IMG/VR virus record: IMGVR_UViG_3300029922_000039
Origin: a virus
Length of the DNA: 64,000 bases
Direction: 5' to 3' (one strand)
Positions within the stretch are counted from its first letter, which is position 1. Each line of letters opens with the position of its first letter. The notes under the pieces were generated by a model. The model ran no database searches, was not told the DNA's origin, and saw only the letters and a program-made list of their open reading frames with translations. This document shows, in pieces, positions 5,943 to 60,671 of this stretch. Both the position numbers and the translations under genes were made by a program.

Positions 5943-7097
5943 TCAAGATACCTTTCTCCACGGAAGCACGCGCACGATCTGCTCGTTTGCGGGCCTCGTC
6001 TGTTCCAGGTTGTCGTTGCCGCCGTAAGTGTCGATGGTCGTCGCGATGCGGGAGTGGCGCATTAAATTGCGCTGAGTCTCCATCGGTAGGCCTATTTGCT
6101 TCTGAATAGCGCGGTTCAGATGCCTCAAGGAATGCCATCCAAGCCCCGAAGCGCCAATCCTCGCCCCGGCTGGCTTCAGGTACTCTTCCCTCAACGGATC
6201 TCTGTCGTAGGGCCTCCCCGTCCGCTCCGAGCCGAAGATCCAGTCGCCGATAACCGGCCGGTAAGCGCGCCACTCGCGCAGGAGGTCCACCAGATTCTGA
6301 TGCAGAGGTAACACCTGCCGGGAGCCCTCCGTCTTCACGTTGTTTGTCTCCCCGCCGATCACGCCGCGCTCGATGGAGATAGTGTTGGCCTCGAAGTCGA
6401 GATCCTTCCACTGGAGCCCCAGCGTCTCCGAGATGCGCAGTCCGAGCGCAGCGGTCACCTGAATGATGACCTTGACCAGTTCCGGAAGTTCTGGATCGTC
6501 GAGCAATGCTTGGTACCGCGGGATGGTCAGGATGACAATCTCCTTGGCGCGTGCGCTCGATCCCTTGAGCTTCACCACCTCCACCGGGTTGCGCTGCATC
6601 TGGATCACCTTCCAGAGCATTGCCTTCTCTATCAGGAGGTGGAGCAGGGCCTTCACCTGGGCCTTGTAGAGTCCAGACAGAGGCTTCGCGGGCGCACGCT
6701 TCGGGCGCTGTCTGACCGTGGTCAGGCCCTCCAGCCAGTTCTGGACCTGAACCATATCCAGCGTGAACTTGTCGATGCGCGTACTACCCCAGGCTTCTCG
6801 GATGCGCGACAGGATGGACTTGTAGGAGTTGGCGGTGGACTTCCGATCAGGCATCGCTTCGCGCAGGAAGCGGTCCACCAGGTCGGCCATCGTCACGCAC
6901 TCGGAGGTCGGCCCGTTGATGATCGACATCATGCGCTCGGCGGCCCGTATCGCGTCGGCTTTGTCGGGGTACTGGCGCTGCGTCCCGATGAAGTCGGAGA
7001 ACTGCTTCCCGTCGCGCCGGTAGCGCAACCTCCATACCGGACCCGACTTGAGGGATATGAGGGTTACTGAGCCGTGCTGATAGCTGTTTTTGGGCAT
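5943..7097 (-). CDS. int: tyrosine recombinase / phage integrase
   Basis: 384 aa. N-terminal arm-type domain (VWRLRYRRDGKQ). C-terminal catalytic signature LRISE...HSLRH...LMRHSRIATTIDTYGG (R..HxxR..Y). Confidence 0.9.
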   Translation of the reverse strand: MPKNSYQHGSVTLISLKSGPVWRLRYRRDGKQFSDFIGTQRQYPDKADAIRAAERMMSIINGPTSECVTMADLVDRFLREAMPDRKSTANSYKSILSRIREAWGSTRIDKFTLDMVQVQNWLEGLTTVRQRPKRAPAKPLSGLYKAQVKALLHLLIEKAMLWKVIQMQRNPVEVVKLKGSSARAKEIVILTIPRYQALLDDPELPELVKVIIQVTAALGLRISETLGLQWKDLDFEANTISIERGVIGGETNNVKTEGSRQVLPLHQNLVDLLREWRAYRPVIGDWIFGSERTGRPYDRDPLREEYLKPAGARIGASGLGWHSLRHLNRAIQKQIGLPMETQRNLMRHSRIATTIDTYGGNDNLEQTRPANEQIVRVLPWRKVS

Positions 7098-7121: not shown

Positions 7122-7156
7122 ACAATACACGGAGGATGAGACATTTTGCAAGCGTT
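7122..7156 (-). promoter_or_regulatory. candidate integrase promoter with AACGCTTGCAA box
   Basis: The minus strand reads AACGCTTGCAA (7156-7146), then 18 nt, then TATTGT (7127-7122), then GAAAGGAAAGG and ATG 7097. Confidence 0.45.
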
Positions 7157-7161
7157 AAAGC

Positions 7162-7192
7162 AGGTGACGTAGCGTATATCGCTACGTTACCT
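7162..7192. repeat. 31-bp near-perfect palindrome (terminator and/or recombinase/regulator site)
   Basis: AGGTGACGTAGCG-TATAT-CGCTACGTTACCT: 13-bp arms with one G:T mismatch and an AT-rich centre. It overlaps the ASCH stop codon at 7187-7189. Confidence 0.6.
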
Positions 7193-8700: not shown

Positions 8701-11337
8701 CTATCTCCTTGCGATATTGTCGAAACGAGTGAGGGAACCTTCAAATGCAAGGTGAATGGTGCGAGTAGCACCATTACGGTGCTTCGCGCAAATAAGCTCT
8801 GCAATCCCCTTCAACTCGTCATTATCTCGGTCATAGTATTCTGGCCTATGGACAAAGTTGAGAACATCTGCGTCTTGTTCAATTTGCCCGCTGTTGTGAA
8901 CCACTATGCCGTTCGCTATGAAATTATTAGGACCTGGCACGATACGATCAAATACCTTAACGTCTCCTGCCGCGTCTATCCTCTTGAGCCGATCCCAAAA
9001 AATGTACGAGTTAATTAGGACAGACAACTCTGGGACCTTGATGCCACGCCTAGAGAATACAGAGAGGGCCTTGGACAAATCTACTTGGCTTATGCGCTTT
9101 CCCTGGCTCCTGTATCCCAAGTCGCCATATGACATCCCATTCGCAAGAGAAATTTCCCTCAGCTTTGAACTTACCCACACTCCCAAACGGTCTCCATGAT
9201 TGCTGCCGTGCAAACTAGGGTTCAAGCCAAGAAGAGTTCTTCCTTTTCTCCCTACCAAATTAATCTTTGACCGAAATAAATCTACCTCTTTCCCCTCTTG
9301 GATCAATACACTATAGCAAACAAAATTAGCCTTGGGACTAAGATCCCCCTCATCAATCTTTGCAAATACTCCAAGGCGGCTCAAGCACCACATAAATTGC
9401 CATGCCATTTTTTTGCTTGTGGTGCTGTACTTTACCATCGGAACAGAGGTGGTAAATACCGATCCATCTGTCTCTACTAGGCCAGCTATCATGTTGGCGA
9501 TAGACTCGTCATCGGCCTGCTCCATAAACCACTCCGGGATGCTTTTCTCGTGGGCTTTTTTACCCCACAAGTCGTGGCACATTAGCCAATTTTTTACGGG
9601 GTTTCCTTCCCTTGTCCTCTTCGATCGCGTTGTTATGTCGTACTGGAAAACCTTATCGCTTGAGTGCTTGTGATATCTAGGGATAAGACCGAATAGCCTT
9701 TCAGTGTCCTCACAGAAATCCTTGGCAACATCCGCGCAAGAACAAATGAAGGATGGGGATGAATACCCTAGCATTGATCCATTTCCGAGCATTCTCCCAA
9801 TCCACCGAGATTCCGGTATAGAAATACGCCCAGGCAGGCTGTCGATCTTTCTCGCCGCAGCAATAGCGTGATCTGGAGTTAGGTCTTTGGCCTTGACCCA
9901 GCCAACATCCGTGAGTATGGAGTGATTTGGAGTGCATACAATTTCGCGCCCCGATCTCGTCCTGACTCTAATCGCTTGCGATACCCCCTTCGGAACGTTG
10001 AAGGAAGGGACAGGTTTGATTTTTTCATTGCTTAAACTATACGTGTTCATAGGAGATTCCATATTAGATTGAACACCACCAGAAGTAAACAGAAAAGTGT
10101 CTTTTTCTGACAAGCATTCCCGCAGATCTGACAATACGGGACGCTTATCTTGGCGCTGTTCGTTATTCCTATTGAGTTGGGCAAGAGCGATCACGGGGCA
10201 ATCGAGTTCTTTTGACATTGCCTTCAGGGATCGAGACACAAGCGCCACTTCTTGTTCCCTGTTTTGGGTTTTTTTGTCTCCCGATACGAGACTGATGTAA
10301 TCGATCACCACAAGATCAAGGCGCCCCTCGCGCTGCTTTAGCCGGCGACCCTTTGCTCTCATCTGAATCGGGGTCATATTGGAGCAGTCGTCGATAAATA
10401 TGCGAGACTCCACCAAGTCATTTAGTGCCTTCTGTAGCTTTCTTTTTTCCTCCGAGCTAAGGAATTCTCCCTCCATGGCCCTCTTGATGTCCACGCGAGC
10501 CCTAGATGCCATGAACCGACGCTCCACCGAGGGCCTCGACATCTCCAAAGAAAAGAACGCTGCTACCATATCTGTTCCGCAGCATACGTTTTCGAGAATA
10601 TTCATTGAAATGCTAGTTTTTCCTTGCGCTGGCCTGGCTGCAATGATCGTCAACTCTCCCTTCTGAAGACCTCCAGTAAGCCGATCGTAATCAATAAAAC
10701 CCGTCGGAAGTCCCACCTTGAGGTTCGGTTCGGTGTACTGGCGAATATATTGATCTGGCCCTCCCGCTTGAGTTACAGAAGATCCGAAGTCTCGCAACTT
10801 GCTGGTATTCGACTCCTGGGCCACCTCCAGCAACTGCGATTCCGCGTCTTCCAGAACCGCCATCGCCGTCTCGCTCTGGTCGGCCGCGCGCGACAGCACA
10901 GAGGAGCAGATTGCCATCAGCCGGCGGAGTTGGGACTTCTCCTTGACGATGCGAATGTAGTCGGCAATCTGGGGCCGCCGCGGTAGTCCATCCGTAAGGC
11001 CGGAAATGAACGCCGCGCCACCGACTGACTCGCGCTCCTTGTGGCGGTCGAGTTCCGCGCATAGGGTCACAAGGTCTACGGCTTGCTGCGCGTCGATCAG
11101 GTCGGCCATGCGCTGAAAGATGCGCCGATGGCTGTCGAGGAAGAAGTCCTCCGGCGTCAGCGCCTCGGCAATCTCGTTGAAGCAGGCCGGGTCTAGGAGC
11201 ACAGCCCCGAGTAGGACTCGTTCTCCATCGATCGAGCACGGAGCCACTGCTTCCACCGTTTGGGGCCGTGGACGCTCCTTCTCTTCCGGGTACTCCGGTG
11301 CCTGGTCGGGGATGCGGTATTCGGAGATGTCAGACAA
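8701..11337 (-). CDS. dnaB: replicative DNA helicase DnaB, interrupted by an intein
   Basis: 878 aa with a TTG start. Walker A ARPAQGKTS, Walker B LVVIDYISL, and the conserved LSDLRE|...|SGQIEQDADV motif split by a 408-aa insertion. Confidence 0.9.
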   Translation of the reverse strand: MSDISEYRIPDQAPEYPEEKERPRPQTVEAVAPCSIDGERVLLGAVLLDPACFNEIAEALTPEDFFLDSHRRIFQRMADLIDAQQAVDLVTLCAELDRHKERESVGGAAFISGLTDGLPRRPQIADYIRIVKEKSQLRRLMAICSSVLSRAADQSETAMAVLEDAESQLLEVAQESNTSKLRDFGSSVTQAGGPDQYIRQYTEPNLKVGLPTGFIDYDRLTGGLQKGELTIIAARPAQGKTSISMNILENVCCGTDMVAAFFSLEMSRPSVERRFMASRARVDIKRAMEGEFLSSEEKRKLQKALNDLVESRIFIDDCSNMTPIQMRAKGRRLKQREGRLDLVVIDYISLVSGDKKTQNREQEVALVSRSLKAMSKELDCPVIALAQLNRNNEQRQDKRPVLSDLRECLSEKDTFLFTSGGVQSNMESPMNTYSLSNEKIKPVPSFNVPKGVSQAIRVRTRSGREIVCTPNHSILTDVGWVKAKDLTPDHAIAAARKIDSLPGRISIPESRWIGRMLGNGSMLGYSSPSFICSCADVAKDFCEDTERLFGLIPRYHKHSSDKVFQYDITTRSKRTREGNPVKNWLMCHDLWGKKAHEKSIPEWFMEQADDESIANMIAGLVETDGSVFTTSVPMVKYSTTSKKMAWQFMWCLSRLGVFAKIDEGDLSPKANFVCYSVLIQEGKEVDLFRSKINLVGRKGRTLLGLNPSLHGSNHGDRLGVWVSSKLREISLANGMSYGDLGYRSQGKRISQVDLSKALSVFSRRGIKVPELSVLINSYIFWDRLKRIDAAGDVKVFDRIVPGPNNFIANGIVVHNSGQIEQDADVLNFVHRPEYYDRDNDELKGIAELICAKHRNGATRTIHLAFEGSLTRFDNIARR
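8893..10116 (-). mobile_element. DnaB intein with LAGLIDADG homing-endonuclease domain
   Basis: Residues 408-815. It begins with Cys (CLSEKDT), ends VVHN, and has +1 Ser. Internal IGRMLGNGS and IAGLVETDGS are LAGLIDADG motifs. It is visibly more AT-rich than the exteins. Confidence 0.85.
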
Positions 11338-12446: not shown

Positions 12447-13769
12447 TTATTTCTTGCGGCGTACCGAGATTGAGCCCTGATCTTCAGCCCTCATGCCGGG
12501 CACGTTGAAAGCGGTCTTGAGGGCTTTGGCAAGCCGGTTGAGTTCCGTCAGATTCGGGCTAAGAAGTTGCGCCGCCGACTCCAGGGGGAACTTGTCATTT
12601 TTCACGGCGCGCAAAAAGTCGATCATCGAGATTTCATCCTCAACGACTTTCCAATTACTGCGCGATGACTGGCCCTCGATAACCGGAGCGGACGGGGCGA
12701 TGTAGGTTGGCTGAACGTAAATGTGAGGCACGACCACAGGCGCATCGAATAGCGTCTGCGCCTTCTCCGTGTCGCCATCTTCCAGTGCGTCACTCACATC
12801 AGCCAACTTGATGCGCGCAGCCTCTTCTTCTTGCAGTCGCCGCGATTCAGCCTCTGCCTCTTCCCGCGCCTTGCGTACCGCCTCCTGGCGCTGACGTTCC
12901 ATCTCCCTGTCCCACGTAAGGATCTGGGCCTTCACGCTCTTCACGGCGTTCTCAAGGGGGTCAATGGCGCTCTTCTTGAGGTCATTGGCATAGGTATAAG
13001 AATCGTACAAAATCTTGCGGAACGGATCCAGCAAGGCCAATGTCGTGTCCTTGCGGTCCGTGAGGATGGTGAGTACGTCGCTGGCCTGTAGGCGCGTCTG
13101 CGGCGTCGTGACCTTGATAGAGAGAGCCTTGTCGGAGTCGTTCTTGCATTGAGCGATGATGGCCTTGATTTCGCCTTCGCGCTCTTGCAGGAGGCTCAGG
13201 GCATCAACGGCTGTCACTGGCTCGGTCCACGCGCCCATGACTTCGCCGACAGGCTGGGTGGTGAGTGCTGTCTGCGCGAGCCGATCCAATTCCTTCTCAA
13301 CGTAATCTTTCTCCCCCTCTGGCCAGTCGGAGTCCTCCATGACAACTTTGGTGGTCGGATACTTGGCGGCGGCATACTCGGGAGACATCCTCTCCATAGA
13401 ATTGGAGCCGTCAGTAAGGGTGGTCTTGGTCAGGAGCGTTTCTGCCACCGGCGCGATGAAGTCCAACTCCTCTTCGCTCAGTCCGCATTCGACCTCGGCC
13501 TTCTTCGGCGCAGGCGGGAGCACGGACGGATCGGCACCAAGGGTTTCGAATGTCCACGCCGAATTGCCTTTGATCTGAGAGTTAAAGAATTTCCCCAAAG
13601 ACTCTGCAAATTTTGCTTCGTCTGCCACTTCGGGCGAAACGTTCTGATAGGCCCGAATCTCTTTGGTGGACTTGAATTCGAAGAGGAGCTGCCAAGATTC
13701 TTCATGGTAGCCGAAGCGACTGAACATACTGCTGGTCACGGGCTGTAGTGCGGAGTATATGCTTTCCAT
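12447..13769 (-). CDS. hypothetical protein with N-terminal KTSC-like domain and central charged coiled coil
   Basis: Track ORF trimmed to ATG 13769 (MESIYS...). The N-terminus (FGYHEESWQLLFEF...YQNVSPEVADEAKFAESLGKFFN) is KTSC-like. The centre carries REMERQRQEAVRKAREEAEAESRRLQEEE. Confidence 0.55.
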   Translation of the reverse strand: MESIYSALQPVTSSMFSRFGYHEESWQLLFEFKSTKEIRAYQNVSPEVADEAKFAESLGKFFNSQIKGNSAWTFETLGADPSVLPPAPKKAEVECGLSEEELDFIAPVAETLLTKTTLTDGSNSMERMSPEYAAAKYPTTKVVMEDSDWPEGEKDYVEKELDRLAQTALTTQPVGEVMGAWTEPVTAVDALSLLQEREGEIKAIIAQCKNDSDKALSIKVTTPQTRLQASDVLTILTDRKDTTLALLDPFRKILYDSYTYANDLKKSAIDPLENAVKSVKAQILTWDREMERQRQEAVRKAREEAEAESRRLQEEEAARIKLADVSDALEDGDTEKAQTLFDAPVVVPHIYVQPTYIAPSAPVIEGQSSRSNWKVVEDEISMIDFLRAVKNDKFPLESAAQLLSPNLTELNRLAKALKTAFNVPGMRAEDQGSISVRRKK

Positions 13770-13827
13770 GCCTTGATTCCCTTTCCTTGCACTTGCAGTG
13801 TACTTCTGCGAGTGCGGGTTGTGCAAC

Positions 13828-17667: not shown

Positions 17668-18624
17668 TTATTTCTCTTCGGCATTGCGCTTGTCCAACTC
17701 CGCGCCCGCCAGTTCCGCGATCTTCACCCAATCCGCCTTGTGTTCGTTCACGAATGCAACACACTCTTCATGCGTCCAGCCAAGGTACTCGAACAGTTCG
17801 TCCACCTTCAGCCGGACCGGAGCCTTCGTGTTGGCCCACTCAAAGGCTTTGGCTTCGCCAGAGACGGGAATGTCTGCGGAATTGCGCGGCGCCTCGATTC
17901 CGAACTCGGCCTTGAGGTAGGCTTTCGAGTCGTCCGGGGTGTGGCCCGACGAGCGGTACGTTTTGTACCAGGCGGTCGCCTTCTCCTTGCCGATGGTAGG
18001 CTCTGGATCGGGGAGTGCCTGCTGAGTGTTGCCTTCGATCAGCGCGCCGTTTGGCGTACCAGCCATCACGGTGCCGCCCTTGATGCTTTCCGCCTCTTCC
18101 TCGTCCATGATGCCGGAAATCGAAAACGCAACGCGAGCACACTGAACGAGAGCGCGGTGCCGGGTCATGCGGATCGGCGACTTCTGCCAAGGGTCTGTGT
18201 TACGCGAGCACTCCGACCAATACTCGGTGACGACGATGGGGAGGCGACGGTCCTTGCGGTGGATCTTGCAGGTCACTCCCGAAATCTTTCCCTTGTCGTC
18301 GAAGTGCTCCTCGAACTCGATGCCGTCGAGCGTTTCCTGCCGATTGATGACCTTGCACCATCCGTCCACGGAAACATAGATCAGCAACTTCCCCTTGGAT
18401 CGGAAAGCGTAAATCTCTTTGAGAAAAGGGTTTAGATCGTACTGGTTGCAAACCAAGATTGCTGCGTGAACTTCGTCTGCGGTGAGCGGGGCCTCGTCTT
18501 TTCCCTGCTTGAAGATGGTCGATGCCACGATGGACATCACATTGGCCGCGTCGATCTCGAACTTATCCGCAAATCGAGTCATCAGCGCGTGCCGTGCCGG
18601 TGCTACCTGGAGTGCTGTTGCCAT
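17668..18624 (-). CDS. recT: RecT/Red-beta family single-strand annealing protein
   Basis: 318 aa. NQYDLNPFLKEIYAF...LIYVSVDGWCKVINR is the conserved core of RecT/Bet recombinases. Confidence 0.8.
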   Translation of the reverse strand: MATALQVAPARHALMTRFADKFEIDAANVMSIVASTIFKQGKDEAPLTADEVHAAILVCNQYDLNPFLKEIYAFRSKGKLLIYVSVDGWCKVINRQETLDGIEFEEHFDDKGKISGVTCKIHRKDRRLPIVVTEYWSECSRNTDPWQKSPIRMTRHRALVQCARVAFSISGIMDEEEAESIKGGTVMAGTPNGALIEGNTQQALPDPEPTIGKEKATAWYKTYRSSGHTPDDSKAYLKAEFGIEAPRNSADIPVSGEAKAFEWANTKAPVRLKVDELFEYLGWTHEECVAFVNEHKADWVKIAELAGAELDKRNAEEK

Positions 18625-18639: not shown

Positions 18640-19404
18640 TTACCTGTTAGAGTCTTCATTCTTCGTGGAGTGCATATCCACGCACATCGGCGTTCCGACG
18701 CCGCCAACGAACGTCTGTGTCTCGTAAATCCAAGCCTTCCGTACTACGTCCGATGGCCAAACTTCATCGGTAGCCCAACCTCTGTCCGAGCCAATAAGAT
18801 CCGTTCCGTCTGCGTTGGAAATAGAGCGCACGCGAGGCTGCTTGTCTTCAGGAAACATCTCTCTATATTTGCGCGCAATGAGATCAGCCTGTATCCCGTT
18901 ACATACAATCAAGTTTACATCCCCGCCAACCGTCTCGTGAATGTATTCCAGAAGGGCGAGAGTCTTTCCTGTCTGCCTGCCGCGCGTCACGAGGCTTTCT
19001 CCGCTGCGCAACTCCGCCTTGATAGAGTCCACCGACGCACGCATTTCCGGGCTGAGTTCAATCTGCATTTGATCCTTTCCTTTACAGGTTAGTCCGTGCA
19101 TGAATGGACGCTTCAGGTTGTAGGCCATCTTCTCTGCGATCGCCGCTTCCAAATCAAACCCGACAGTTCCGGCAATATCTCCTGCGCGAATCACGATGTC
19201 TGCAATCTCCGAAGGGAAACCGGAAGGTTTTCCGTTCAATTCGTAGCGGTTCACCGTCAGGTCGTTACCGTCGCGAATCTCGTCAAACGCTTCGGTCGCT
19301 TCCTGTATAAGCAGGAGCAGTGCTGTAGGAATATGGATACTCTTATGGAAGCCGTGCTTCTCTGAGTTTTCCCACGCATCTGCCTGCATTTTTCTGATTT
19401 CCAT
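18640..19404 (-). CDS. MazG-like nucleotide pyrophosphohydrolase fused to a P-loop-like C-terminal domain
   Basis: Start at ATG 19404 (GGAGGA upstream). N-terminal EATEAFDEIRDG...EIADIVIRAGDIAG are the MazG EExxE/D motifs. The C-terminal half carries TRGRQTGKT. Confidence 0.65.
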   Translation of the reverse strand: MEIRKMQADAWENSEKHGFHKSIHIPTALLLLIQEATEAFDEIRDGNDLTVNRYELNGKPSGFPSEIADIVIRAGDIAGTVGFDLEAAIAEKMAYNLKRPFMHGLTCKGKDQMQIELSPEMRASVDSIKAELRSGESLVTRGRQTGKTLALLEYIHETVGGDVNLIVCNGIQADLIARKYREMFPEDKQPRVRSISNADGTDLIGSDRGWATDEVWPSDVVRKAWIYETQTFVGGVGTPMCVDMHSTKNEDSNR

Positions 19405-19434
19405 TCGTTCCTCCACTGCCTCAATAACAACCCA

Positions 19435-19464
19435 ACAATACACCAACGCTTGCACGAATTGCAA
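19435..19464 (-). promoter_or_regulatory. candidate leftward early promoter
   Basis: Minus strand: TTGCAA (19464-19459), 18 nt, TATTGT (19440-19435). These are the same -10 and spacing as the candidate int promoter. Confidence 0.45.
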
Positions 19465-19470
19465 CAACGC

Positions 19471-19499
19471 TTGCAACTTTTTTGCGACCGTCGTAGAAT
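19471..19499 (+). promoter_or_regulatory. candidate rightward promoter giving a leaderless mRNA
   Basis: TTGCAA (19471-76), 17 nt, TAGAAT (19494-99). The ATG at 19507 is 8 nt after the -10 box, with no SD. Confidence 0.5.
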
Positions 19500-19506
19500 C
19501 TCTACT

Positions 19507-19764
19507 ATGCCGAGACCCAAGCCACTACCGAAAGCACCCAAGAAGAAGGCCGAATCGCGTGGAACCAAAAAAGTTACCTTGGGAAGACTTACTGCCGAAG
19601 AGAGAAAAGCCTTCTTCCTTAAGATTGGCTCCGAGGGGGGTACCACTACCCTCGCCAATTACGGGCCGGACTACTACGTCCGTCTCGCTATCCGTTCCCA
19701 TCAAGTCAGACGAGAGCGCCGTGCCGCAGCTCTTGCTGCGCAAAGGCTTGGTCCCAGCGCCTGA
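19507..19764 (+). CDS. small basic protein (85 aa), candidate regulator
   Basis: Internal ATG of track ORF 19450..19764. MPRPKPLPKAPKKKAESRGTKK...; its composition looks more protein-like than the overlapping frame. Confidence 0.5.
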   Translation: MPRPKPLPKAPKKKAESRGTKKVTLGRLTAEERKAFFLKIGSEGGTTTLANYGPDYYVRLAIRSHQVRRERRAAALAAQRLGPSA

Positions 19765-20584
19765 CCAGATCACGGTGGCGCAAATCGCCGCCGATCTTGG
19801 AGTGGAGACTGACCGCATCCAGCCGCTGATCGACCGGGGCTACCTGCGCGTTATGATCGCCGGCGAGACTCTGGAGACCACCATCGTCGCCCGGCCTCTC
19901 CCTGCGGCAATGGCTTGGCTGTCCACAATGTTCGTGCCCCTTCGGATGCGCCCTATGCTGCCTGCCGGGGAGGTGGCGACCTTCCTCCAGTTGTCGGCGG
20001 CTGCATTCCGCTCCTACGCGATCCACTACAACATCCCCGTCTACGACGATCCGGTCTTCGGCGAACTGATAACCCTAGCATCCCTGTACGCCTTCCAGCA
20101 GGCCCTCTACGACGAGCGCAGCGTGACGCGCTACGACCGGCAGACCATGCTCGCCATGATGTGCAAGAAGAATCCCGTCCTTGGAAGAACCAAATACACG
20201 GCCTACAGCAAGAAGATCGAAGCGGAGATCATGCGCATCTCGCACATGGAGGAGCCAGACAGGACCATGCGCGCCGTGGCCTTCTGGACGGCCTACAGGG
20301 ACGCGGAGACGGTCTACAAGTGCCTGGAGGACTACGAGGGGACTGTGCGGGAACTGACGCCGTGGGATCTGCGCCAGAAGAAAAAGGTAGCCTTGCTCCT
20401 CAAGTGGACGGAGATGAAGCGCAAATGGGGAGACACGCCACGGAAAAAGCGCACGAAGATGCGCAAGGACAAGGGAACGCACAAGCCCGGATGGGTGCCG
20501 AGGCCGAAGAAGAAGGTGCGGTGGGGGAAGCGGTACGAGTCGAAGACGAGGAAGAAGTCGGGGTACTGGACGAGCGAGGACTGA
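19748..20584 (+). CDS. putative DNA-binding protein with extremely basic C-terminal tail
   Basis: Track ORF 19559..20584. The first ~60 codons overlap the previous gene and look like off-frame translation, so I use TTG 19748 (GTG 19775 is also possible). HTH-like ITVAQIAADLGVETDRIQPLIDRGYL. K/R-rich tail. Confidence 0.5.
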   Translation: MVPAPDQITVAQIAADLGVETDRIQPLIDRGYLRVMIAGETLETTIVARPLPAAMAWLSTMFVPLRMRPMLPAGEVATFLQLSAAAFRSYAIHYNIPVYDDPVFGELITLASLYAFQQALYDERSVTRYDRQTMLAMMCKKNPVLGRTKYTAYSKKIEAEIMRISHMEEPDRTMRAVAFWTAYRDAETVYKCLEDYEGTVRELTPWDLRQKKKVALLLKWTEMKRKWGDTPRKKRTKMRKDKGTHKPGWVPRPKKKVRWGKRYESKTRKKSGYWTSED

Positions 20585-20943: not shown

Positions 20944-23900
20944 TTATTGCAGAACGCTCGTCATGCGATGCCTGCGCCCAGGGAAGGACGGTGCCACCTT
21001 CTTCGGCTTCAGGCCGGGAACGTAGCGGCTGATTGGAACTTCCTCGTTCACCGTCTGCTTGACGATGTTCGCACGGCGCTCTTCTGGGGTCTGCTTGTGG
21101 TGGCCAGTATCCATATAGGTAGCCCCTACCTCTCCGGCAGCCTTCACCGCATTATAAGCATCCGTAACGGCTACTCCTACGACAATCTGCACCATCGAGT
21201 TCGTTACGCGGCTCTGCTGGACCAACTTCTGCGCGTCCTTGGGGTCATGCGTGGCCAGTTCGTTGAAGAGTTGCGTCAGAGTCTCGACGCCCATACCCAT
21301 CGAAATATAGTGCAGCGCGTTGAAGAGTGCTTCCTTCGAGACGGGATGCTCTTCCAGCCACTTCTTCTTCCGGTCTTCCATGGCCGCTTCCGGAGATCCC
21401 GACATCTGGTGACGCAGGTGGAGCAGTTCCGAGAGCGCATACCCGGCCAGGCCGAAGCTCGCGCTGAACCTGCCGATCAGTTTGTACGGCTCGGCGCTCT
21501 TGTAATCGGACTTGTAGAGTTCCTGCCACACCGTCCGGTTGACGAGGTTGGCCGTCTTGAACATGAAGCCGTGAAGCGACTGCGCAATGCGCATCAGGGT
21601 CGTCAGGCGCTGGAATATCGGAGGGTCACTCAACTGATTGCGCGCGGCCATGGGGAGTTCGGAGGGCCTGCCGCTCCCGGTGGTCCAGTTTGCCGCAGCC
21701 AGTTCCATGCGGCGCACGTCCTCTGGTCCATAGCCCTTGGTCGCCATGTTGTCCATTTGCTCGTCAGTGAATCCGTAAAGGTCGGTGAGCTTGCGGCGCA
21801 GTACGGCGCTCTTGGGGTCCTTGACCAGTTCCGGGTAGGCGTACTTCTCAAACCACAGACGGCCAGCCCCGGACGCAACCACGCGGCTCCAGTTCATGAT
21901 GGCGGTGAAACCGTTGTAGTCCAGCATCTTCTGGTCCCACCCTCCGCCATTCATTCCGTATTCCCGCATCCAAGCCTGCTTGATGTAGTTGACCATGGCG
22001 CCACAGTCTACCGCGTTCTTGCGCATCTCACGCGGATTGATCGCAGAGCGAATGAACGACTCCGCCAGGCTGCGCGTGTTGGTCGCCAATACCGTCTTGG
22101 CAAGGTGAAGCGGGAGTTTGATGGGGCTCAGGTGCATCTTGCTCAGAATCAGCCAGCGGTTCGCCCAGCGCAGGGCAATGCGGTCCGAGTCATGCAGCCG
22201 GGCCGGGTCCAAGTCGGAGGTGATGATATGGTTCACCATCGAGCGGGTGCGGCTGTCCGGCAAGGCGTCGATCAGCGGGTCTGTCTTCTCGCGGAACTGT
22301 CCATGGACTTCGGCGGAGGCCAACTTCTCTGAGATTTCATTGACGTAGCGATCAAGAACCTTGCGGTCGCGGCCATACATCGGGATCTCGAACTCGCGGG
22401 CACGCTCCACGTTGCCTGCGAGGCGAATGCCGCGCGCGTTCTTGTCGAAGAACAGTTGCGCCTTGATCTTGGAAATACCCTTCTGCTCGGCCACCTTCTC
22501 GATCAGAGCTTCGCGGCGCTCATCGCCCTTGGGCATCCTCATGATGTCACCCAAAGAGGCAACTACCTTGTCGCCTTTGGCGTCCGTGATGATGAACTTC
22601 TCTTCCCAGTTGTAGATGCGCGGCCAGTAACGCGGGTCATCGGCGATCTTCGAGTATGGCACATCGCTACGCTTGCCCTTCTCGTCATAGAAAACAACGG
22701 CCATCCCGGCATCGGCCAGGCGTTTGCGCACGGTAGCCGTGAACTTACGGAATTCAGTGACGGCTTTATCGATACGCGGGTCGGTCGTTGTCTCTTGTCC
22801 CTCGACCACCTTGGAAACCGTCCTCAGATCATTCGGGGTGAGTTTGTTCTTGGAGATAATCTCCTCGACCATGCCGCCGAACTCTCCTCGGTAGTTCCCA
22901 GATCGGATGTCATAGTCGATCAGGCGGCGCTTCAGTTCCATACCCATCTTTTCGTGGCCAGCATCCCTGCAAATCTGCTCTACGGCTCGGTCACCAGACA
23001 TTCCGAACATCCAGAGGCTCGACTTGACGAGGTGCGCGGCGGAGCGACCAGTGCCCTTCATGCCGTCGAACCATAGAAGAGCGTCGTTCTCAAGGTCGCG
23101 GGTCCGGCGGTCGATGGCTTCCTTCGGATTCTCCCCGGCGGCCTTAGCGGCGCGCCCGGCGTGCTGTGCTTCAGCCTGAAACGCTCCTTGATGAGCGGCA
23201 ATGGCTTGGGACTGCTCCGCTGGCAGGCTCTTGGTACGTCCCATCATGTCTTCCCACGCAGACTGAGCGAGAGAATTCAGGTGCGCTTCGGGGTCTTCAT
23301 CCTTCGGCCCCTGATAGAGTTTCTTGCCCTGCCCCTTGTACTTCATGGGCTGGTGCATAGCCTTCTTAGCGTCGGGGATCTCGAACTCGCTGATCGGAGT
23401 GAACTTCGCCTCGTCCGTCGTGCGCTCGAAGTCTGCCGCTTCGGGGGCGTATTCGTTACCCTGGTCGTACTCAAGCATCTCTTCTGGGATGCCTGCCGCC
23501 TCGCGCAGGTTCTTCGACAACTGGGTTTCGTTGCGTTCGCCATAGACGGCCGCCTTGAGTGCCCTCATGCGCGGCAGAACCTTGGTCCCCAAGAGCTTGA
23601 TCTCCGGCAGGGCATCGGTGGTCAGGAAGATATTGGCAACTCCCGACTGGCGCCCATAGCGGTCAGTGCGGCTCGTAGCCTGCTCCAGCATGATCGAACT
23701 CCACGGCGGAGTGATGAAGATACCCATGCGCGGCTTGTTGCCCACCTTGTCGTGCGCGCTGGCGCCGACGCCGCCAGCGGCATAGGTCGCATACAGCGCA
23801 TCCTTCTCGCCGCTCTGGAAGCCTTCCAACTCTTCAGCGCGCAACTGGTTCGCGTCCCCGGCGAAGATGCCGATCTTGTCGCCGAATTGCGCGCGCATCG

Positions 23901-26900
23901 CCTTCACCATATCCGGCAATGGCGGGAGCATTGCATTGATCTGCTTGCCCAGGTCGCCCGGCAGACGGTTGATGAAGTCCATCCCTTCTTCCGCGGCAGA
24001 ACGGTACTCAGTGAAGAGAACCGGGCTCCACCCATCCTTGATCGCCTTCGCCGCCAGTTCGATCGCATGTGGCAACTTGGCCGCCTCAAGGTAGCGTTTC
24101 AGGTAGATCGCCTCGTGGCCGGCCGCAGCCTTGATCAGACTCGACATCTTGTTGCGCTGGAAGGCGGCACGCGCCATCGTGAACGCCTTGCGGATGCTGC
24201 GCACCCCGGCGCGAACCTCTTCAGTCTGCGGAACAAGTACGACGTGGGCCTCGGTGCCTTCCATGTCCTTGTGAAGTTGCTGCCACTGCCCGCGTTCGAT
24301 AAGCTGCTGCCGCAACTTCTCCAACTTGCGCGGCGCGGAACCGCCGCTGTAGCTGTTCGGACCGCTCTCCACCAGACCAAACTGGCTTGCCCATCCCGTG
24401 AACCCTCCATGCGGCCAGAGTCCCAACTTGTGCATGTAGCCGATTTCGAGAGTGGTGCTGTACGGCGTGGCGCTCGAATAGATCACCTTCTTCGCCGCGT
24501 GTCCCAGCATAATGACAGCCTTACCCTGCTCGGAATCCGTCCACTTGCGCGCCTCGGAACTCTCATCAAAGAGAACAAAGTCCCATGGAACTGACAAGAC
24601 GCTGCGGTTGCCGCGAATGCCTGCGTAGGTCGCTGCGTACATGCCGGTCTGCATCTCTTCCATATTGCTTGGGAGGTCGTTCACGTCCACGCCAAAGCGC
24701 CGGGCAACGTCTTTGAGTCCGTCTGCTTCGTGAATAAGGTTTTGGCTGCGCGTTACCCACAATCCAACCTTGTCGCCACTCGTTCCGAGAAGGTGGCTGC
24801 AAAGTGCTGATCCTAAAAAGGTTTTTCCAGTACCCGCACCGCTAGCAAGAATCGTCGCGTCGTACTGCTGCAACGCCGAAATAACGCCATCGGCAACTTC
24901 CGGCTGCCCAGGGAAGATGAGCAAGTCGCGCAGGTCGGTAGCAAGGCGCTGTGTCGGCGGCGGTGTTCCCTTCGGCAAGCCAAGGTCCTCCACATGACCA
25001 CGCCACTTGTCAGGATCGACGACCGGCGTGCCGCGTGGTCGCTCCGGCGATTGGAGCTTTGCCGCCTTTACTTTTGCGAGGGGGTCTGCTGCCGGTTTGG
25101 CAATGGCCCCTCGTCCGGAAGTTCGTGAACCGCCGGGGGCCGCATGTTCCCTGTCGGCCGATCCGGCTCCGCCATGAACTTCTCCAGCATCGCCCGGTTC
25201 TCGAACCCCAGAAGTTCCATGAGATACGCTTCTCGATCGTGCATTTTCCCCTCCCAGTGCAATCGCCGTGGGGTCGCCCATCACCTGCTGGACGGTCGCG
25301 GCCTGTGCTGGCGTGGTTGGTTCGTTCTGCGTCGGCATCTCGCTCAGTCCGTGGACGAGTTGGATGACGCTGGTATCCTTCGGTTCAGGCTTCGACCCTA
25401 TAATGCCTGTTGCGCCGCGGAGTTTGTCCTCAATGCCGTTCAATTGGCCGCGCAAGAGAGCCTGGCGGCGGGGATCTTGCTCTCGCTTCAGTTCATCCTC
25501 AAGAGACTTCGCCCGGCGGGACAGATCGACCATCTCGCTCAGGCTCGGCTGGAACAGTTTCTTGCCGCGCTTCATCTGAATGCGGAGGTAGACTTGCTGC
25601 TCACCGCGGACTTGCAGGATCTCCCATCCCTTGATGTCGGCACCACGCTCCTCGATCACGTCCAAAGCGTCGGCCATGTTCTGCTTGTGGATTACCTTCG
25701 AGTTATCTCCTGGCTTCGGGCCGGAGCGGATCACCTTGGCATCACGCGGAACCTCGACGCTGCCGGTATCCATGGCCTGCTTGCCCATCTTCTCGATCGC
25801 GTCCACGTCCAGACGGGTAGTGAGTGGTTTGCGCTCGGTGCGGGTCCAGTCGTACCAGTTGTCAAACATGGCCTTGAGTTCCGGGGACCCTTGCGCCAAC
25901 TTCTTGCCGGTGACCGCATTGTAGACCGACTGCATCGAACGCGAGAGGGTTGCGAAAACCTTCTCCAGTTTGCCGCGCCGAATGCCGCCATCGTAGTGAT
26001 ACCGCTCAAAAGCCTGGGCAAACAACTCTTCCTGTTTTTCCGTCCACTCTTCTCCTGGCTTTGCGCCGACAAAAGCATTGGCCACGCTCTGATCTGCCGG
26101 GCTGAGGTATTGGCGAACATAATGCGCCATCTCATGAATGAAGGTGGAAGTATCGGCAGTGTCGCAAAGGCGAATAATCGCCCGCCCATCTTCCAAAATC
26201 TGCGTGTAGCCGCGCTGGCCGCCCTTCTCCTTGCCGCCGAAAGCGATAGTGAGACGCCGATTGCCTAGCAACTCTTCGAGCTTCATCCCAAGAGCCTGCG
26301 GCAAGATATGCTCCATCATGTCGCCGACCGCCGCCGCTTCTTCGGGGGAGAGGTTCGGGTGACTCTCCAGCGCACGGCGCAGGTCCTGCACGGTGCGCGG
26401 TCCCTCTGGCAATGCCACTTCCACGCTGGACGAATCCGGCGCGGTGTCGGCTATCACGGTCTCATGTGAGACTGGAACCTCAACCGGCAACTCGCCGCGC
26501 GCGTCCTCAATAACAGTCTTCATGGCGTCGGACAGGCCAGCAACAGAACCCCACTCTTCGGGGATAACGTTCAACCCGTACTTCGAAGCGATCTCGTCGG
26601 TGAATACGTCTGCCGGGTGCTCCGCGCCAAACATCGAAGCCTGGACGCCAGTAGCGCGGTCGGCGTATTTCGCCAGCATCTCGGTGTACTTGGCCGGCGA
26701 CTCTTCGAGCGCCATGGCAAGCGCCTCAACTCCGGCATGAACTGGCTTGTGGAGCGACTGGCCATCGAAGTCTGTGATATCCAAGTCACCTTGGACTCCA
26801 GTATCCTTCTTCCCTTGGTATCGCTCCGGGTGCAGGCCCTTCTCGATCAGCGAATCCCTGCCGGAGCCCTTTGAGACTTCTCCCGGCTTGCCCTGCAAAT

Positions 26901-29900
26901 GATGCAACGATGCCGCGGCGTCTTCCAGTCGGGTCAACATGCGCACTGCGTCGGAGTTCATCGACGCCAGATTCCAGTTCTCCCCGGCGTTCCGCATCTT
27001 GACGAAGAAGATTCCGGCGCGCGTCAGGCTGTTCTTCGTGGACGGGCTGATCCCTTCGAGTGAGGTGGGGTCGCTGACTGTGAGGCCGACCAGCATGTTC
27101 TCGAAAAGGCTCTTGGCCTTATCCGTCAGATCGCCCTTGTCGTCTCCTGTCTGGATCACGTACTCGGCCAATTGGTTCGGCGCAATGATGCCGGAATCCA
27201 CCATCAACTGAGCGATATCGGCGGAGCGCGCGCGCATCGCCTGCCGCGCTGTGAGTGTGCGGGTCTTGCCTGTCTTCTTGTCTACTTCGGTGCTGGGCAT
27301 TGAGCTGACGATGTTATCCAGGCGGTCGAGGTAGTCCGTCGTGAGCAGCCGCGACATAGCCGCGCCCATTTCCACTTCATTGATTCCGTAGGCAGGGGGG
27401 CGGTTGAGGTCCAGACCAAGCATCGACCACTGGTGTTCGTCTACCGGCGCATCGATGCGCTTCATCAGGATAGGGTTCCGGTACTTTTCAATCTCGGCTG
27501 GGTCGATCCCGAGCGACTGCGCGCGGCGCAACAGTTCATCGCGGTAGCGCGCGTATTCCTTGGGGTTCTTGATGAGAGCGGTCAGGATCGAGAGCGTGCG
27601 CCCGTTGCCGGAAATGACGTGGCCGCTCTGGTCGATGATGCCAGGACCCTCCATTGTCGTCACGCCATTGCTGAGAACCTGGTCGAGATCGAGATTGGAG
27701 ACACGTTCCTCCACGCCAGTCTGAGCCTGCTTATCGCTCTTGTAATCGCGCGGTTGCCCATTCTGGTTGTATCCATCCCGGTACTCATAGGTCATCGGCA
27801 TGTGCGAAGTCTGCGCGTCTGTGGCCTCCATCACAACATAGTGTGACGGGATACCTTCCCTGTTCTGAGGCGACACAACACGGGTAGCGCCGCCGATCGA
27901 CATTGGGTACGCCGGGGTGGCCGCTGGTGGAGGGGGTGGCGGATTGATAACCGACTGAGCGCCAGCCACCACTGCATCCGCCTTCTTTTGTGATTCATCT
28001 GCTGCTGCTTGAGCAGCTTCGGCTTGCGCCGTGTTTCCCCCAGCCCTTAAATTCTCTGCCGCGTTTTGCAGGTCGTGCGCCTGATCGGTAAACTCGATCA
28101 CCTGCTTTGCGGCTTTCTCGCGCGCTCCCTCGATATCCACATGGAAGGACGCGGCGGTGTCGTCGGCAATCTTCCGGGCAACATGCTCAGATGCGGCGGC
28201 GCGGACACGCTGCATCCGTCCAATAAAATCCCGCATCTTCGGCGTGCGAAGATCGTTGCGTGTGTCCTTTACGGTCTTCTCGATTTTGAACAGGTCGTCC
28301 ATGCTGTCAACGGGACCAAGGCCCAGGTCGCGGGCATCCTGAGTCAAGCCGGCGGTGGCCTCGACAATCGGGCGAAGGTTCTGCGGACCCTCCGGCGACT
28401 GCGCCTCAGTCATCAAGCCTGTCAGTTCTGCCCTGTGCTTCGCTGCGGCGTCAGCCGCCATATTGGTAGCCAGATCAGTTTCCATGTCCCGCTGGATCTG
28501 GTCGCGGTACTCCATCAGCATCTGGGCTTGCTGCCGGCTCCGCAACTGGTCCTCGATGTTTGCGAGGTCGATGTGCTGTCCAGAGGCAATGCGCTCCGAA
28601 AGGTCTGGAGTCAGGAATGCCTTCAACTTCTCCGGTTTGGCGCGTAGGTAGTCGGCCAGCACCGCGCTGCGGTCTTCTGGCGCCAGCGAGTCCCATGACT
28701 TGCCCATGGACTTCTCGGTGTGTTCGTTCAGATCGCGGTGCGTGGCCGGGTCTGCCTGGAGAGCGGAGTCCATGTTTGTCCGAGCAATGATGAGCTTGGC
28801 CAGGCCAGAGTGGAAGTCCGCGCCGGGCGCCAATGGCTGCTCATTGCCGGTAGAGTGCCGTTCCAGATAACGCTTCGACGCTGCATCGACCATCGCTGCA
28901 TCTCGCACGCGGTCGGCATGATCCTGATAGGCGGGGGTATCGCGGAACGCCTGCCATGCTTCGGGATGGAACCGCTCAAGCCAGCGCGCGGCGACGGTCT
29001 GCCGGGAGAGGGGAAGCATCGAGAACGAGGTCTTGAATCGATCTTCTGTGAGTTCCTGAACCTTGGACTCGGCGGCGGCAACTTCCGGGGCTGGGGCAGG
29101 CAATGGCTCCCCGGCGGCAGTGCGGCGCTCGACTACGGGAATGGCGGTTGACTCTGCCGTCTCTGGCTCATACCGCTGGCCGGGTTCGCGCTCGGTGGTC
29201 TGCTTGAGACCGCGTGTAGTCTGTCCCGACCGACCCTCTTCAACGGGAACTGCCGGAGCCTCTACCGCGGCTTGTTTGGCGGCCTCGGCGCGGTCCTTCT
29301 CGCCCTGTACCTTGGAGGCAGTCACCTTGTCTTCGGCGGCCTTCCGAGCGGCAGACTCGCGCTGCATGGCTTCGTGCTGTGCGGCGGCGCGGCGCGCCTT
29401 GGCGACAAGGGTTTTCCGAACAAGAGCCTTTGCTGCTTCAAGGCGTTCCGCGGTGACGCGAGTCCCGAGTCCAGCATCTACTGGTGATTCATCTGGGGAT
29501 ATTTCTATCCCTCCGGCGGTATTCTTCTTTACCTTCTCGCCTAGCGGAGACTTGCCATACTTGGCCCTGATACGCTTGACTTCCGCATCCACCTTCTTCT
29601 TGAATTCAGGATCGGCATCTTCCATCGACCGATACAGAACATCTGCCTTCTGCTCATCGGTCAACTTTACGAACGGCTTCTTGTAGAGGTCTTCCGAAGG
29701 CTTATTGAAGTCCCAGGTGCGAACGCGGTCCTTGACGGCTTCCGACCCGGCGTGCCCGTAGTGCATCCCTACAACGACAAGAGCGTTGCCGAACAGATCG
29801 CCCCACTTCTCCGCAGAGTCACCTTCTCCTGTTGCCGAAGACGCCGACGCATCGGCCACGCCAGAAACACCACTAGAGATCAACTGCCCCTGATACGACA

Positions 29901-35159: not shown

Positions 35160-35197
35160 GTTTTCTTCCTCGTCTTGGCGTAGTGACGCTTGCAACC

Positions 35198-35226
35198 ACT
35201 GTACGCTTGCAGAGATAATATTGCAA
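35198..35226 (-). promoter_or_regulatory. candidate internal promoter of the virion operon
   Basis: Minus strand: TTGCAA (35226-21), 17 nt, TACAGT (35203-35198). Two ACGCTTGCA copies (35186-95 and 35203-12) overlap the spacer and the +1 region. Confidence 0.4.
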
Positions 35227-35231
35227 CCGTT

Positions 35232-35453
35232 TTACGCTCCAGCGGTCTGCGCTTCCCGAACAGGACGGAGGTGGGTCTTGGGGCTGTAATCCTCGTCTCG
35301 GCTCGACAGGCGATGAATGGTGTAGTTCTCTTCGCCGTGAAACTCCAAAAACAGTTCCAGGCATCGGGAGCACATGGGATGCTGGTTCACCAAATACACC
35401 GCAACCCGTTTCTTGCTTTTGCACCCTCTCCCATCGCATAGCCTAAGAGCCAC
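35232..35453 (-). CDS. small zinc-finger protein (73 aa)
   Basis: GTG 35453 with GGAGG 7 nt upstream, just after the stop of the 1354-aa gene. CDGRGC...CSRC. Confidence 0.45.
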   Translation of the reverse strand: MALRLCDGRGCKSKKRVAVYLVNQHPMCSRCLELFLEFHGEENYTIHRLSSRDEDYSPKTHLRPVREAQTAGA

Positions 35454-51710: not shown

Positions 51711-51736
51711 CACTGGCCTCCGTTAATTTGAAATTC

Positions 51737-59906: not shown

Positions 59907-60512
59907 CTACTCCTGCGGTGCAAACAACTCGGACTGGTTGGACTCTTCTGGATCCCGAACCTGCTCCACCTGCTCATCGTACCGCGCCGTCTGGCTCTGC
60001 ATGTACCCGGATGGCGGCCCACTGAAGGCGGTCTCCTCCGGCGCAAACTCGTCCGGTCCGTACTCGTGCGTCACCTTTTCCTCGGTGTTCAGGAAGAGTT
60101 GCTGGATCACGCCGACTGCCTTCTCCAACCGGAGGCAAGCCTGGATGGCGCGCGCCGCGGCCCCCTGCAAGGCGTCGGCATTGATGCGGTCGATTCCGGC
60201 CTGCATCTTCTGGCGGTGCTCCTCAAGAGTCGAGGTGGTCTTCTTGCGGTGCTCGTCCAGCAAAGCCTTCATGTCATTGCGGATCACCCCGAACGAGGAC
60301 TTCGACGATTCGATCTGCCGGGCTAGTTCCGTCTGGTACTGCGCCAGCACGGCGCGAGTCTCACTTGAGACTGAAACCGCTTCCAGCCGGAGCGCGGCCA
60401 GGGCCTTGCGGAGATTCATCGCCAACCAGATCAGGACGCCGAGACCGGACAAAAGAACGGCCAGGAATAGGCCACAAAATAGGGAGATTGCCACAACCCC
60501 GATAGTGCTCAT
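59907..60512 (-). CDS. membrane-anchored coiled-coil protein (201 aa)
   Basis: N-terminal TM helix IGVVAISLFCGLFLAVLLSGLGVLIWLAM. Confidence 0.55.
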   Translation of the reverse strand: MSTIGVVAISLFCGLFLAVLLSGLGVLIWLAMNLRKALAALRLEAVSVSSETRAVLAQYQTELARQIESSKSSFGVIRNDMKALLDEHRKKTTSTLEEHRQKMQAGIDRINADALQGAAARAIQACLRLEKAVGVIQQLFLNTEEKVTHEYGPDEFAPEETAFSGPPSGYMQSQTARYDEQVEQVRDPEESNQSELFAPQE

Positions 60513-60541
60513 GTCGCTAGATTACGCCATACAGGCAACGC

Positions 60542-60570
60542 TTGCAATTGGGAAATTTTGGTGGTAGGCT
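60542..60570 (+). promoter_or_regulatory. candidate promoter of the plus-strand island
   Basis: AACGCTTGCAA (60537-47), with TTGCAA, 17 nt, then TAGGCT (60565-70). Confidence 0.4.
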
Positions 60571-60622: not shown

Positions 60623-60671
60623 GAACCCAGCGTTCCTCTCAGTCCGCTGGGTTCCGATGTGACTGAGAGGA
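60623..60671 (+). promoter_or_regulatory. interleaved inverted repeats (pseudoknot-like) sequestering the RBS of ORF 60676
   Basis: A1 GAACCCAGCG (60623-32) pairs with A2 CGCTGGGTTC (60645-54). B1 TCCTCTCAGTC (60634-44) pairs with B2 GACTGAGAGGA (60661-71). B2 contains the GAGAGGA SD. Confidence 0.55.

Follow-up and report, generated by a model that had tools for sequence, protein, structure and literature searches.

A putative bidirectional promoter and operator region with a recurrent 9-bp box in an uncultured temperate phage

Introduction

How is transcription controlled at the point where a phage genome that is read almost entirely in one direction turns around? The question is raised by an intergenic gap of 102 base pairs (bp) at positions 19405..19506 of IMG/VR virus record IMGVR_UViG_3300029922_000039, which was analysed as a single stretch of 64,000 nucleotides (nt), hereafter the window, in which nearly all genes are on the minus strand. 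The gap separates the leftward early operon, which begins at ATG 19404, from two overlapping plus-strand open reading frames, ORF1 and ORF2. A preliminary description of this DNA saw in the gap back-to-back promoters with three shared TTGCA(A/C) boxes, a leaderless first plus-strand gene and a candidate lysis/lysogeny switch. Our analysis indicates, with moderate confidence, that the gap is a bidirectional promoter/operator region in which a phage-encoded regulator, probably the ORF2 product, binds copies of a 9-bp box, A(C/T)GCTTGCA. The box, its copies and their placement are read directly from the DNA of this phage and its relatives; from them we infer the transcription starts, the identity of the binding protein, the sign of regulation, including a repressor role of the ORF1/ORF2 module, and the role in lysogeny. 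Judged by its gene content, which includes an integrase, the element is temperate.

Two predicted divergent promoters and a shared 9-bp box

The gap is occupied on both strands by the elements of divergent, back-to-back promoters, an arrangement that is supported by the comparison with relatives described below. In the leftward direction (minus strand), a predicted -35 element, TTGCAA (19464-59), is separated by an 18-nt spacer from a predicted -10 element, TATTGT (19440-35), which would place the transcription start near 19428. GGAGGA (19414-09) then precedes the ATG at 19404. The same TATTGT hexamer is present in two related loci, L005 and L007, and in the integrase promoter of the window. 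In the rightward direction (plus strand), TTGCAA (19471-76), 17 nt and TAGAAT (19494-99) predict a start at 19506 or 19507; TAGAAT is followed after 7 nt by the ORF1 ATG at 19507, with no Shine-Dalgarno (SD) sequence. All these elements, as well as AACGCTTGCAC (19445-55), TTGCAA (19459-64) and AACGCTTGCAA (19466-76), were found at the positions originally given when 19200-19800 was read. A consensus scanner flags the rightward promoter (9 of 12 matches) as the only promoter-like site in the gap; the leftward promoter, with 8 of 12 consensus matches, falls under the threshold.

The repeated element itself is not the one first proposed. The TTGCA(A/C) hexamers are in place, but TTGCAA occurs 16 times in the window versus 16.5 expected, that is, at chance level. 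As a repeated element it was rejected for this lack of enrichment, and the middle "box" at 19459-64 is therefore a plain -35-like hexamer only. The sequence that does recur is the 9-bp A(C/T)GCTTGCA, the box ACGCTTGCA being present in 6 exact copies in the window versus 0.58 expected, a number reached in 0 of 100 shuffles; copies with one mismatch (18 versus 16.8 expected) are uninformative.

Two of the exact copies are in the gap. Box 1 (ACGCTTGCA, plus strand, 19446..19454) falls between the -35 and -10 elements of the leftward promoter and is oriented opposite to the transcription that starts there, and box 2 (ACGCTTGCA, plus strand, 19467..19475) contains most of the rightward -35 element and abuts the leftward one. 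The two sit in a 14-nt direct repeat, CA(C/A)CAACGCTTGCA (19441-54 and 19462-75), with a 21-bp period. Box 3, a degenerate inverted copy (TGCGACCGT, compared with TGCAAGCGT; minus strand, 19483..19491), occupies the rightward spacer, 2 nt before the -10 element. It is recognisable solely through comparison with relatives, its position matching that of TGCAAGCGT-cg-TAGAAT in L006, TGCAAGCGT-tc-TATTAT in L007 and TGCAACCGT-cg-TAAAAT in L013. The proposal that shared boxes overlap both promoters is thus borne out by the comparison, once the box is redefined.

Conservation of the predicted leaderless start and of the box

The related loci for which DNA was recovered (L003-L007, L012-L019, L022 and L023) repeat this layout. 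In every one of them that includes upstream sequence, ORF2 is immediately preceded by a small basic homologue of ORF1, the two genes are divergent from a minus-strand operon, and A(C/T)GCTTGCA occurs 2-4 times in the gap. Eight lineages, with 40-65% protein identity, were tested for the promoter-to-ATG pattern. The order TTGCA(A/C), 17-18 nt, TAnnnT, 6-9 nt, ATG, with no SD sequence before ORF1, is found in 7 of the 8, compared with a background rate of 0.5% of ATGs in the same sequences. The gap of 6-9 nt between the -10 element and the ATG is found in all 8 and, in addition, in L022 (TAAACT, 6 nt, ATG, with TTGCTT as -35) and in L023, which, judged by eye, has the same layout as the 7. The exception is L005, with TATCAT, 6 nt and ATG and a poor -35 element without TTGCA(A/C). 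Stop codons just upstream of the ORF1 ATG exclude a longer ORF1 in L006 and L013. Since the pattern is kept across lineages, the leaderless start, without an SD sequence, that had been predicted for the first plus-strand gene is conserved, which supports that prediction. A more distant ORF2 homologue (cluster P0009, at L020 1328-2014) has neither ORF1 nor boxes and serves as a negative control. L020 is an unrelated, integrase-bearing island that adjoins Shedu (SduA) and TIR-domain genes.

Among the relatives, too, the box is over-represented by a factor of 15 to 40, with 8 copies versus 0.28 expected in L017, 6 versus 0.22 in L014 and 6 versus 0.16 in L007. Across 46 unique contexts, conservation is sharply confined to the 9 bp, which are non-palindromic and have no conserved flanks. 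The ACGC and ATGC variants are mixed within ORF2 lineages, and a check for co-variation with ORF2 was uninformative. Box orientation is biased in L014 and L017 (11 of 12) and mixed in the other lineages. At the -35 position of the ORF1 promoter, the box is exact in L003, L006, L007, L018 and L019, lies on the opposite strand in L013 and has one mismatch in L023. In several lineages an inverted pair covers this promoter, A(C/T)GCTTGCA, N7-10, TGCAAGCGT, which is exact in L006 and L007.

Could the boxes then be nothing but an extended -35 signature of the promoters in this phage family, recognised either by the RNA polymerase of the host or by a sigma factor that is alternative or specified by the phage, with no dedicated repressor bound to them? 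The box contains TTGCA(A/C), and it coincides with the -35 element at the ORF1 promoters, at the integrase promoter of the window, at the leftward promoters of L005 and L007 and at L003 7694. At the integrase, ORF1, 35.2-kb and 60.5-kb promoters of the window it is located exactly 17-18 nt upstream of TAnnnT, a hexamer that is found at this distance from 4 of the 7 window boxes, when chance, estimated from base composition, would give it for about 2% of boxes. Moreover, the box is unchanged among relatives with only 40% ORF2 identity, which is unusual for immunity specificities. This explanation nevertheless seems unlikely to us, given that boxes also occur where a -35 function is impossible: inside the spacer of a canonical TTGACA-17-TAnnnT promoter (L003 3010 and the leftward promoter of L019), over the -10 element and position +1 in L007 (TAGGATGCTTGCA) and L018 (TACGATGCTTGCA), 18-20 nt from the start codon at L007 8629 and in L018, and, in L005 and L014, as tandem copies 12-13 bp apart. 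Three window boxes (19446, 35186 and 35203) lack TAnnnT at 16-19 nt, 35186 having GATAAT at 18 nt, and positions 1-4 of the box (AYGC) are as invariant in the 46 contexts as its hexamer part. Such varied positions relative to promoters are not those of a pure core-promoter element but would fit the binding site of a regulator, one that in many places also supplies the -35 element.

Exchange of the locus among phages points the same way as the regulator-binding reading. Over window positions 19426-20580, the identity to L010 and L011, two metagenome contigs from NCBI, is 98.4-98.9%; left of 19426 these contigs are unrelated to the window and carry a different first early gene. In L007, too, the first leftward gene is replaced, here by a methylase-like gene. 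Positions 19427-19506 are co-inherited with ORF1 and ORF2 in both L010 and L011, which supports exchange of the promoter/box region, ORF1 and ORF2 as one module. The break in homology at 19426 is 1-2 nt beyond the leftward start that TATTGT (19440-35) predicts, as one would expect of a promoter/box region that functionally belongs with ORF1/ORF2.

Boxes at distant promoters of the same phage

All 6 exact boxes are intergenic, given realistic start codons, and they fall into four promoter regions; the remaining intergenic gaps of the window were searched and contain no box. With boxes at four promoter regions, control would be genome-wide rather than local.

The first distant site is the integrase promoter, where a box at the -35 position (minus strand, 7147..7155) is followed, in the order AACGCTTGCAA, 18 nt, TATTGT (7127-7122) and an SD sequence, by the integrase ATG at 7097. 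Directly upstream of this box, positions 7164-7190 form an 11-nt palindrome, GTGACGTAGCG-5-CGCTACGTTAC, that could terminate transcription of the upstream gene or serve as a second site of regulation.

The second is a cluster of three boxes (35186..35230) in a 72-bp gap (35160-35231) between two minus-strand genes, comprising exact plus-strand copies at 35186-94 and 35203-11 and an inverted copy with one mismatch at 35222-30. The leftward promoter predicted here has AACGGTTGCAA (minus strand), which provides the -35 element, then 17 nt and TACAGT; one of the exact boxes abuts the -10 element and the other covers the predicted start. The operon downstream begins at ATG 35159 and includes the gene for a 3239-amino-acid (aa) protein. 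Box 35186, together with GATAAT at 18 nt, also forms a plus-strand promoter-like site (35186-35219), from which a transcript would run antisense to a small zinc-ribbon ORF (~35235-35453) and a 1354-aa gene.

The third distant box (plus strand, 60538..60546) overlaps a palindromic TTGCAA (60542-47) that is usable as a -35 element both ways. Rightward, it is followed after 17 nt by TAGGCT, towards a gene starting at 60676; leftward, TTGCAA, 17 nt, TAATCT and 6 nt lead to ATG 60512. The gene at 59907-60512 (minus strand), which encodes a membrane-like protein, also looks leaderless and shares the palindromic TTGCAA with the rightward promoter; it heads the row of minus-strand genes to which those for terminase, portal and capsid belong. 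Two interleaved perfect inverted repeats (60623-32/60645-54 and 60634-44/60661-71) precede the coding sequence of the plus-strand gene 60676, within its 5' untranslated region; one arm (60661-71) includes the SD sequence GAGAGGA, and the repeats at 60623-60671 look like alternative hairpins controlling translation.

Iterons, partition sites and arm sites of an attachment locus were considered for the boxes and rejected, the boxes being dispersed over four promoter regions and positioned by -10 hexamers or start codons.

The distribution over promoters might also suit an activator. In phage lambda, the CII regulon consists of pRE, pI and paQ, and the set of promoters marked here resembles it: the boxes could be sites for a CII-like activator of the integrase, ORF1/ORF2 and 35.2-kb antisense promoters that acts during the establishment of lysogeny and not mainly sites for a maintenance repressor. 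The box is co-oriented with the -35 element at the integrase, ORF1/ORF2 and rightward 60.5-kb promoters, the core hexamers of which are weak (3-5 of 6 positions), and the transcript from box 35186 and its GATAAT would be antisense to the upstream minus-strand gene. The same boxes, however, overlap the spacers, -10 elements and +1 positions of leftward promoters, which face in the lytic direction, and binding there should repress. Furthermore, the box is not a TTGC-N6-TTGC repeat, and the regulator gene depends on the very promoter that its product would have to activate. We give this possibility a small chance.

ORF2, a candidate DNA-binding protein

Which protein could read the box? The best candidate for the regulator that we favour is ORF2 (plus strand, 19559..20584), which probably encodes 341 aa from GTG 19559. 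This start is preceded by AAGAAGG, and the gene overlaps ORF1 in the +1 frame. Gene callers give ORF2 either this length or 287 aa (GTG 19721). The start at 19748 originally assumed is too far downstream: the homologue alignment contains conserved residues, DESAVPQLLLRK and the motif LxRxSPVP, that lie upstream of it and even upstream of GTG 19721, and the true start must accordingly be upstream of 19748.

The homologues of ORF2 form nine clusters (P0001-P0009), none with a Pfam domain or a name. The protein is absent from 50,697 GenBank phage records, a single-protein scan of viral contigs produced no match, and the ORF2 alignment, used as a profile against the sequences of the PDB, returned noise only. 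The AlphaFold model (mean predicted local distance difference test score, pLDDT, 62.7; core 75-87) contains two helix/strand units of the winged-helix kind, at residues 70-125 and 133-188; after these come a helical domain, which includes a long helix, and a basic tail that is disordered. In Foldseek searches of the PDB, TraN of plasmid pIP501 is the best match, followed by RacA, BldC, MerR proteins and the mycobacteriophage Xis (Pukovnik); in a viral library, the matches are phage helix-turn-helix (HTH), excisionase and MerR-like proteins. The model thus suggests that ORF2 is likely to be a DNA-binding protein with tandem winged helices of the Xis/MerR type.

In TraN, two winged helices within one monomer form an "internal dimer", and the protein represses from an asymmetric site (PMC6158623). 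The likeness of the pIP501 protein (PDB 4p0z) to ORF2 would consist in the two winged-helix units per chain; TraN binds an asymmetric site plus a second site upstream of its own gene. Unlike TraN, a regulator of plasmid conjugation, ORF2 is phage-encoded, three times longer and equipped with an extra helical/coiled-coil domain and a basic tail.

The fold matches allow another role for ORF2, as an excisionase, a recombination directionality factor or a DNA-architectural protein, with the boxes as recombination or packaging sites and no immunity module at all. The domain-level matches do include Pukovnik Xis and many phage "Excise" proteins, and one box adjoins the integrase gene. Against this stand the wide scatter of the boxes, which occupy four promoter regions as much as 53 kb from one another and form no single attachment-site-like cluster, and their positions, which track promoters and start codons. 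A typical Xis has ~60-80 aa, in contrast to the 341 aa of ORF2 with its two predicted winged helices and long helical domain, and the mosaic boundary of the module coincides with a predicted transcription start. On balance, such a role is very improbable.

ORF1 and the overlap of the two genes

ORF1 (plus strand, 19507..19764; 85 aa), which has homologues at the same position in all related loci, is a real gene. All lineages keep its core, F(F/Y)xxIGxxGGxxT...(Y/F)(Y/F)xxIAxxSHxxRRE. Searches with phmmer connect ORF1 to stand-alone relatives and to multi-repeat proteins, several of which match Pfam KGG and LEA_5, so that ORF1 appears to be a distant relative of the KGG/LEA_5-type repeat proteins, to which it is linked only indirectly through these phmmer relatives; in a test of five ORF1 homologues against KGG (PF10685), no Pfam match was obtained at E <= 10. 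The predicted structure has three helices (pLDDT 73), and Foldseek found no fold match for it in the PDB. It is the core FFxKIGSxGGxxT...YYxRIA of ORF1 that phmmer links to the multi-repeat proteins matching KGG and LEA_5, groups exemplified by YciG and PA2146. ORF1 differs from the KGG/LEA_5 proteins in having just one repeat, an N-terminus rich in lysine and a tail of its own, IAxxSHxxRRE, and in being phage-encoded and located at a putative switch. KGG proteins are small and stress-induced, and their molecular action is unknown (PMC9262955).

In 8 of 9 lineages, namely the window, L003, L005, L006, L013, L015, L018 and L019, the frame of ORF2, +1 relative to ORF1, runs through ORF1 without a stop codon, and in all eight a start codon follows a purine-rich run 13-55 nt past the ORF1 ATG. 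By synonymous resampling, the per-lineage probability of such an open frame is 0.04-0.6, the lineages not being independent. These observations are suggestive of an mRNA that is leaderless for ORF1 and SD-led for the overlapping ORF2, the region being dual-coding. No intrinsic terminator is reported after ORF2 between 20585 and 20658.

An mRNA of this kind could itself be a two-product switch, with the 5'-terminal AUG yielding the KGG-like ORF1 and the SD-preceded start 13-55 nt downstream yielding ORF2. Leaderless initiation is favoured under stress. If the switch were real, the translational state of the host would set the ORF1:ORF2 ratio and the occupancy of the boxes, cell physiology would be directly coupled to the choice between lysis and lysogeny, and KGG-type proteins would gain a first molecular role. 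We consider this elaboration rather improbable.

A model for the control region

The mechanism that we propose combines these elements. The rightward promoter would start at or next to the ORF1 ATG and give an mRNA that is leaderless for ORF1; ORF2 would be read from the same mRNA through an internal, SD-preceded start, probably GTG 19559. The leftward promoter would drive the early operon, which encodes a MazG-like protein, RecT, exonuclease and DnaB. The recognition site of a phage-encoded regulator, for which ORF2 is the most likely candidate, would be A(C/T)GCTTGCA. The positions of the boxes over both promoters imply that their occupancy would shut the early promoter and autoregulate that of the regulator: box 1, when occupied within the leftward spacer, would block early transcription, and boxes 2 and 3, in the rightward -35 element and spacer, respectively, would subject the regulator's own promoter to autoregulation. 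Through the boxes at the integrase, 35.2-kb and 60.5-kb promoters, one protein could silence or co-ordinate four promoter regions, and its control would reach most of the prophage.

Several observations weigh against this model. Inter-box spacing ranges from 11 to 30 bp, and orientation differs among lineages, which a rigid dimeric repressor would not fit. The box includes a -35-like hexamer, and part of its conservation could accordingly reflect promoter function alone. The rightward promoter alone passes the scanner, the consensus of which is that of Escherichia coli. ORF1 and ORF2 have no family match in Pfam, PHROGs or NCBIfam, and scans with these three collections detected no domain of the CI, Cro or LexA kind. 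Nor did we identify a partner resembling Cro, a domain for self-cleavage or an antirepressor, which leaves induction unexplained. Finally, the whole-chain match between ORF2 and TraN is weak (E = 0.014, template modelling score 0.36, 12-13% identity); given such scores, we hold the DNA-binding fold as likely and membership in the TraN family as unproven.

Genomic context

The window belongs to an 87.9-kb contig of phage DNA from a JGI metagenome, and nearly all of its genes are on the minus strand. The early-left operon opens with the gene for a MazG-like pyrophosphatase of 254 aa (18640-19404, minus strand; PHROG match), followed by RecT (17668-18624), an exonuclease (12447-13826) and a DnaB-type replicative helicase (8701-11337), all on the minus strand; the helicase contains an intein that carries a LAGLIDADG endonuclease domain. 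Further along this strand is the tyrosine integrase (5943-7097). On the other side of the module, the 3239-aa polyvalent protein (20944-30663) contains ddrB-ParB and AAA_34 domains, and in a relative the corresponding protein, encoded at this position, has 3517 aa. ORF1 and ORF2 had been described as the only plus-strand genes of the central 40 kb, which does not hold: an HNH endonuclease gene (44469-45440, plus strand) is inserted among the minus-strand tail genes. The major capsid protein (50733-51713), the portal (53313-55106) and the large terminase (56873-59011) are encoded on the minus strand.

A tRNA-Met gene (62976-63052), the only Rfam match in the window, lies between phage-like genes and is followed by a gene with a peptidoglycan-binding domain (63101-63592). 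Comparison of the tRNA-Met region with the rest of the window revealed no attachment-site repeats of >= 13 bp and no copy of the 3' end of the tRNA. The large terminase is at most 27% identical to that of any deposited phage, and the element has no close cultured relative; blastn of the 17-21 kb segment against phages matched only the RecT/Bet part, and two genome-collection scans in search of a host gave no match.

Significance and comparison with known systems

The locus combines, in a compact module, a promoter/operator region, a leaderless small ORF and an overlapping tandem winged-helix regulator, as predicted here, and the module is conserved across at least 10 lineages of temperate phages from soil and peat that form an uncultured family. 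ORF1 and ORF2 are each a candidate for the first functional assignment within an uncharacterised protein family, and one short box would serve as both a -35 element and an operator at four phage promoter regions. The predictions are precise and can be tested at little cost, as they specify two transcription starts as well as a 9-bp site and where it occurs. We regard the system as an interesting variant that introduces no new principle.

The closest parallel in layout is the lambda OR region with its promoters PR and PRM. There, as here by sequence, divergent promoters stand back to back in a gap of about 100 bp, with repeated sites over both; the gene for the regulator, cI in lambda, points away from the early lytic operon and is transcribed into a leaderless mRNA, as predicted here; and operators and regulator are exchanged as one mosaic module. 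The components differ. Neither ORF1 nor ORF2 is a repressor of the kind that combines an Xre/CI-type HTH with S24 self-cleavage, and the first leftward gene encodes a MazG-like pyrophosphatase, not a small Cro-like repressor. In place of the three ~17-bp palindromes of OR, this phage has asymmetric 9-bp boxes, direct or inverted and variably spaced, and the same box is found at three distant promoter regions as well.

Dispersed asymmetric operators are a feature of other phages, such as the C1 operators of P1, the gp71 sites or "stoperators" of mycobacteriophage L5 and the conserved inverted repeats of phiC31. These systems share with the present one a single short, enriched site at many promoters, often over the -35 element. 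Their proteins are unrelated to ORF1 and ORF2, and the window has only 6-7 copies of its site, all in four promoter regions. Compared with the L5 stoperators, orientation bias is clear in some lineages only, namely L014 and L017.

With respect to the protein, close analogues are P2 Cox and 186 Apl, switch proteins of the Xis fold that bind arrays of 9-bp boxes. In all three cases, an excisionase-fold winged-helix protein would act on multiple short direct repeats at a phage switch. Cox and Apl are small and encoded on the lytic side, at promoters that face each other, whereas the candidate described here is a large, tandem-domain protein, encoded opposite the lytic operon, at promoters that stand back to back.

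The logic, with divergent promoters that share operators, a regulator made from a leaderless mRNA and asymmetric operators dispersed over the genome, is thus a familiar one, known from lambda, P1, L5 and phiC31. The parts are new: the putative regulators belong to no described family, and the overlap of ORF1 and ORF2 and the shared palindromic -35 element are unusual.

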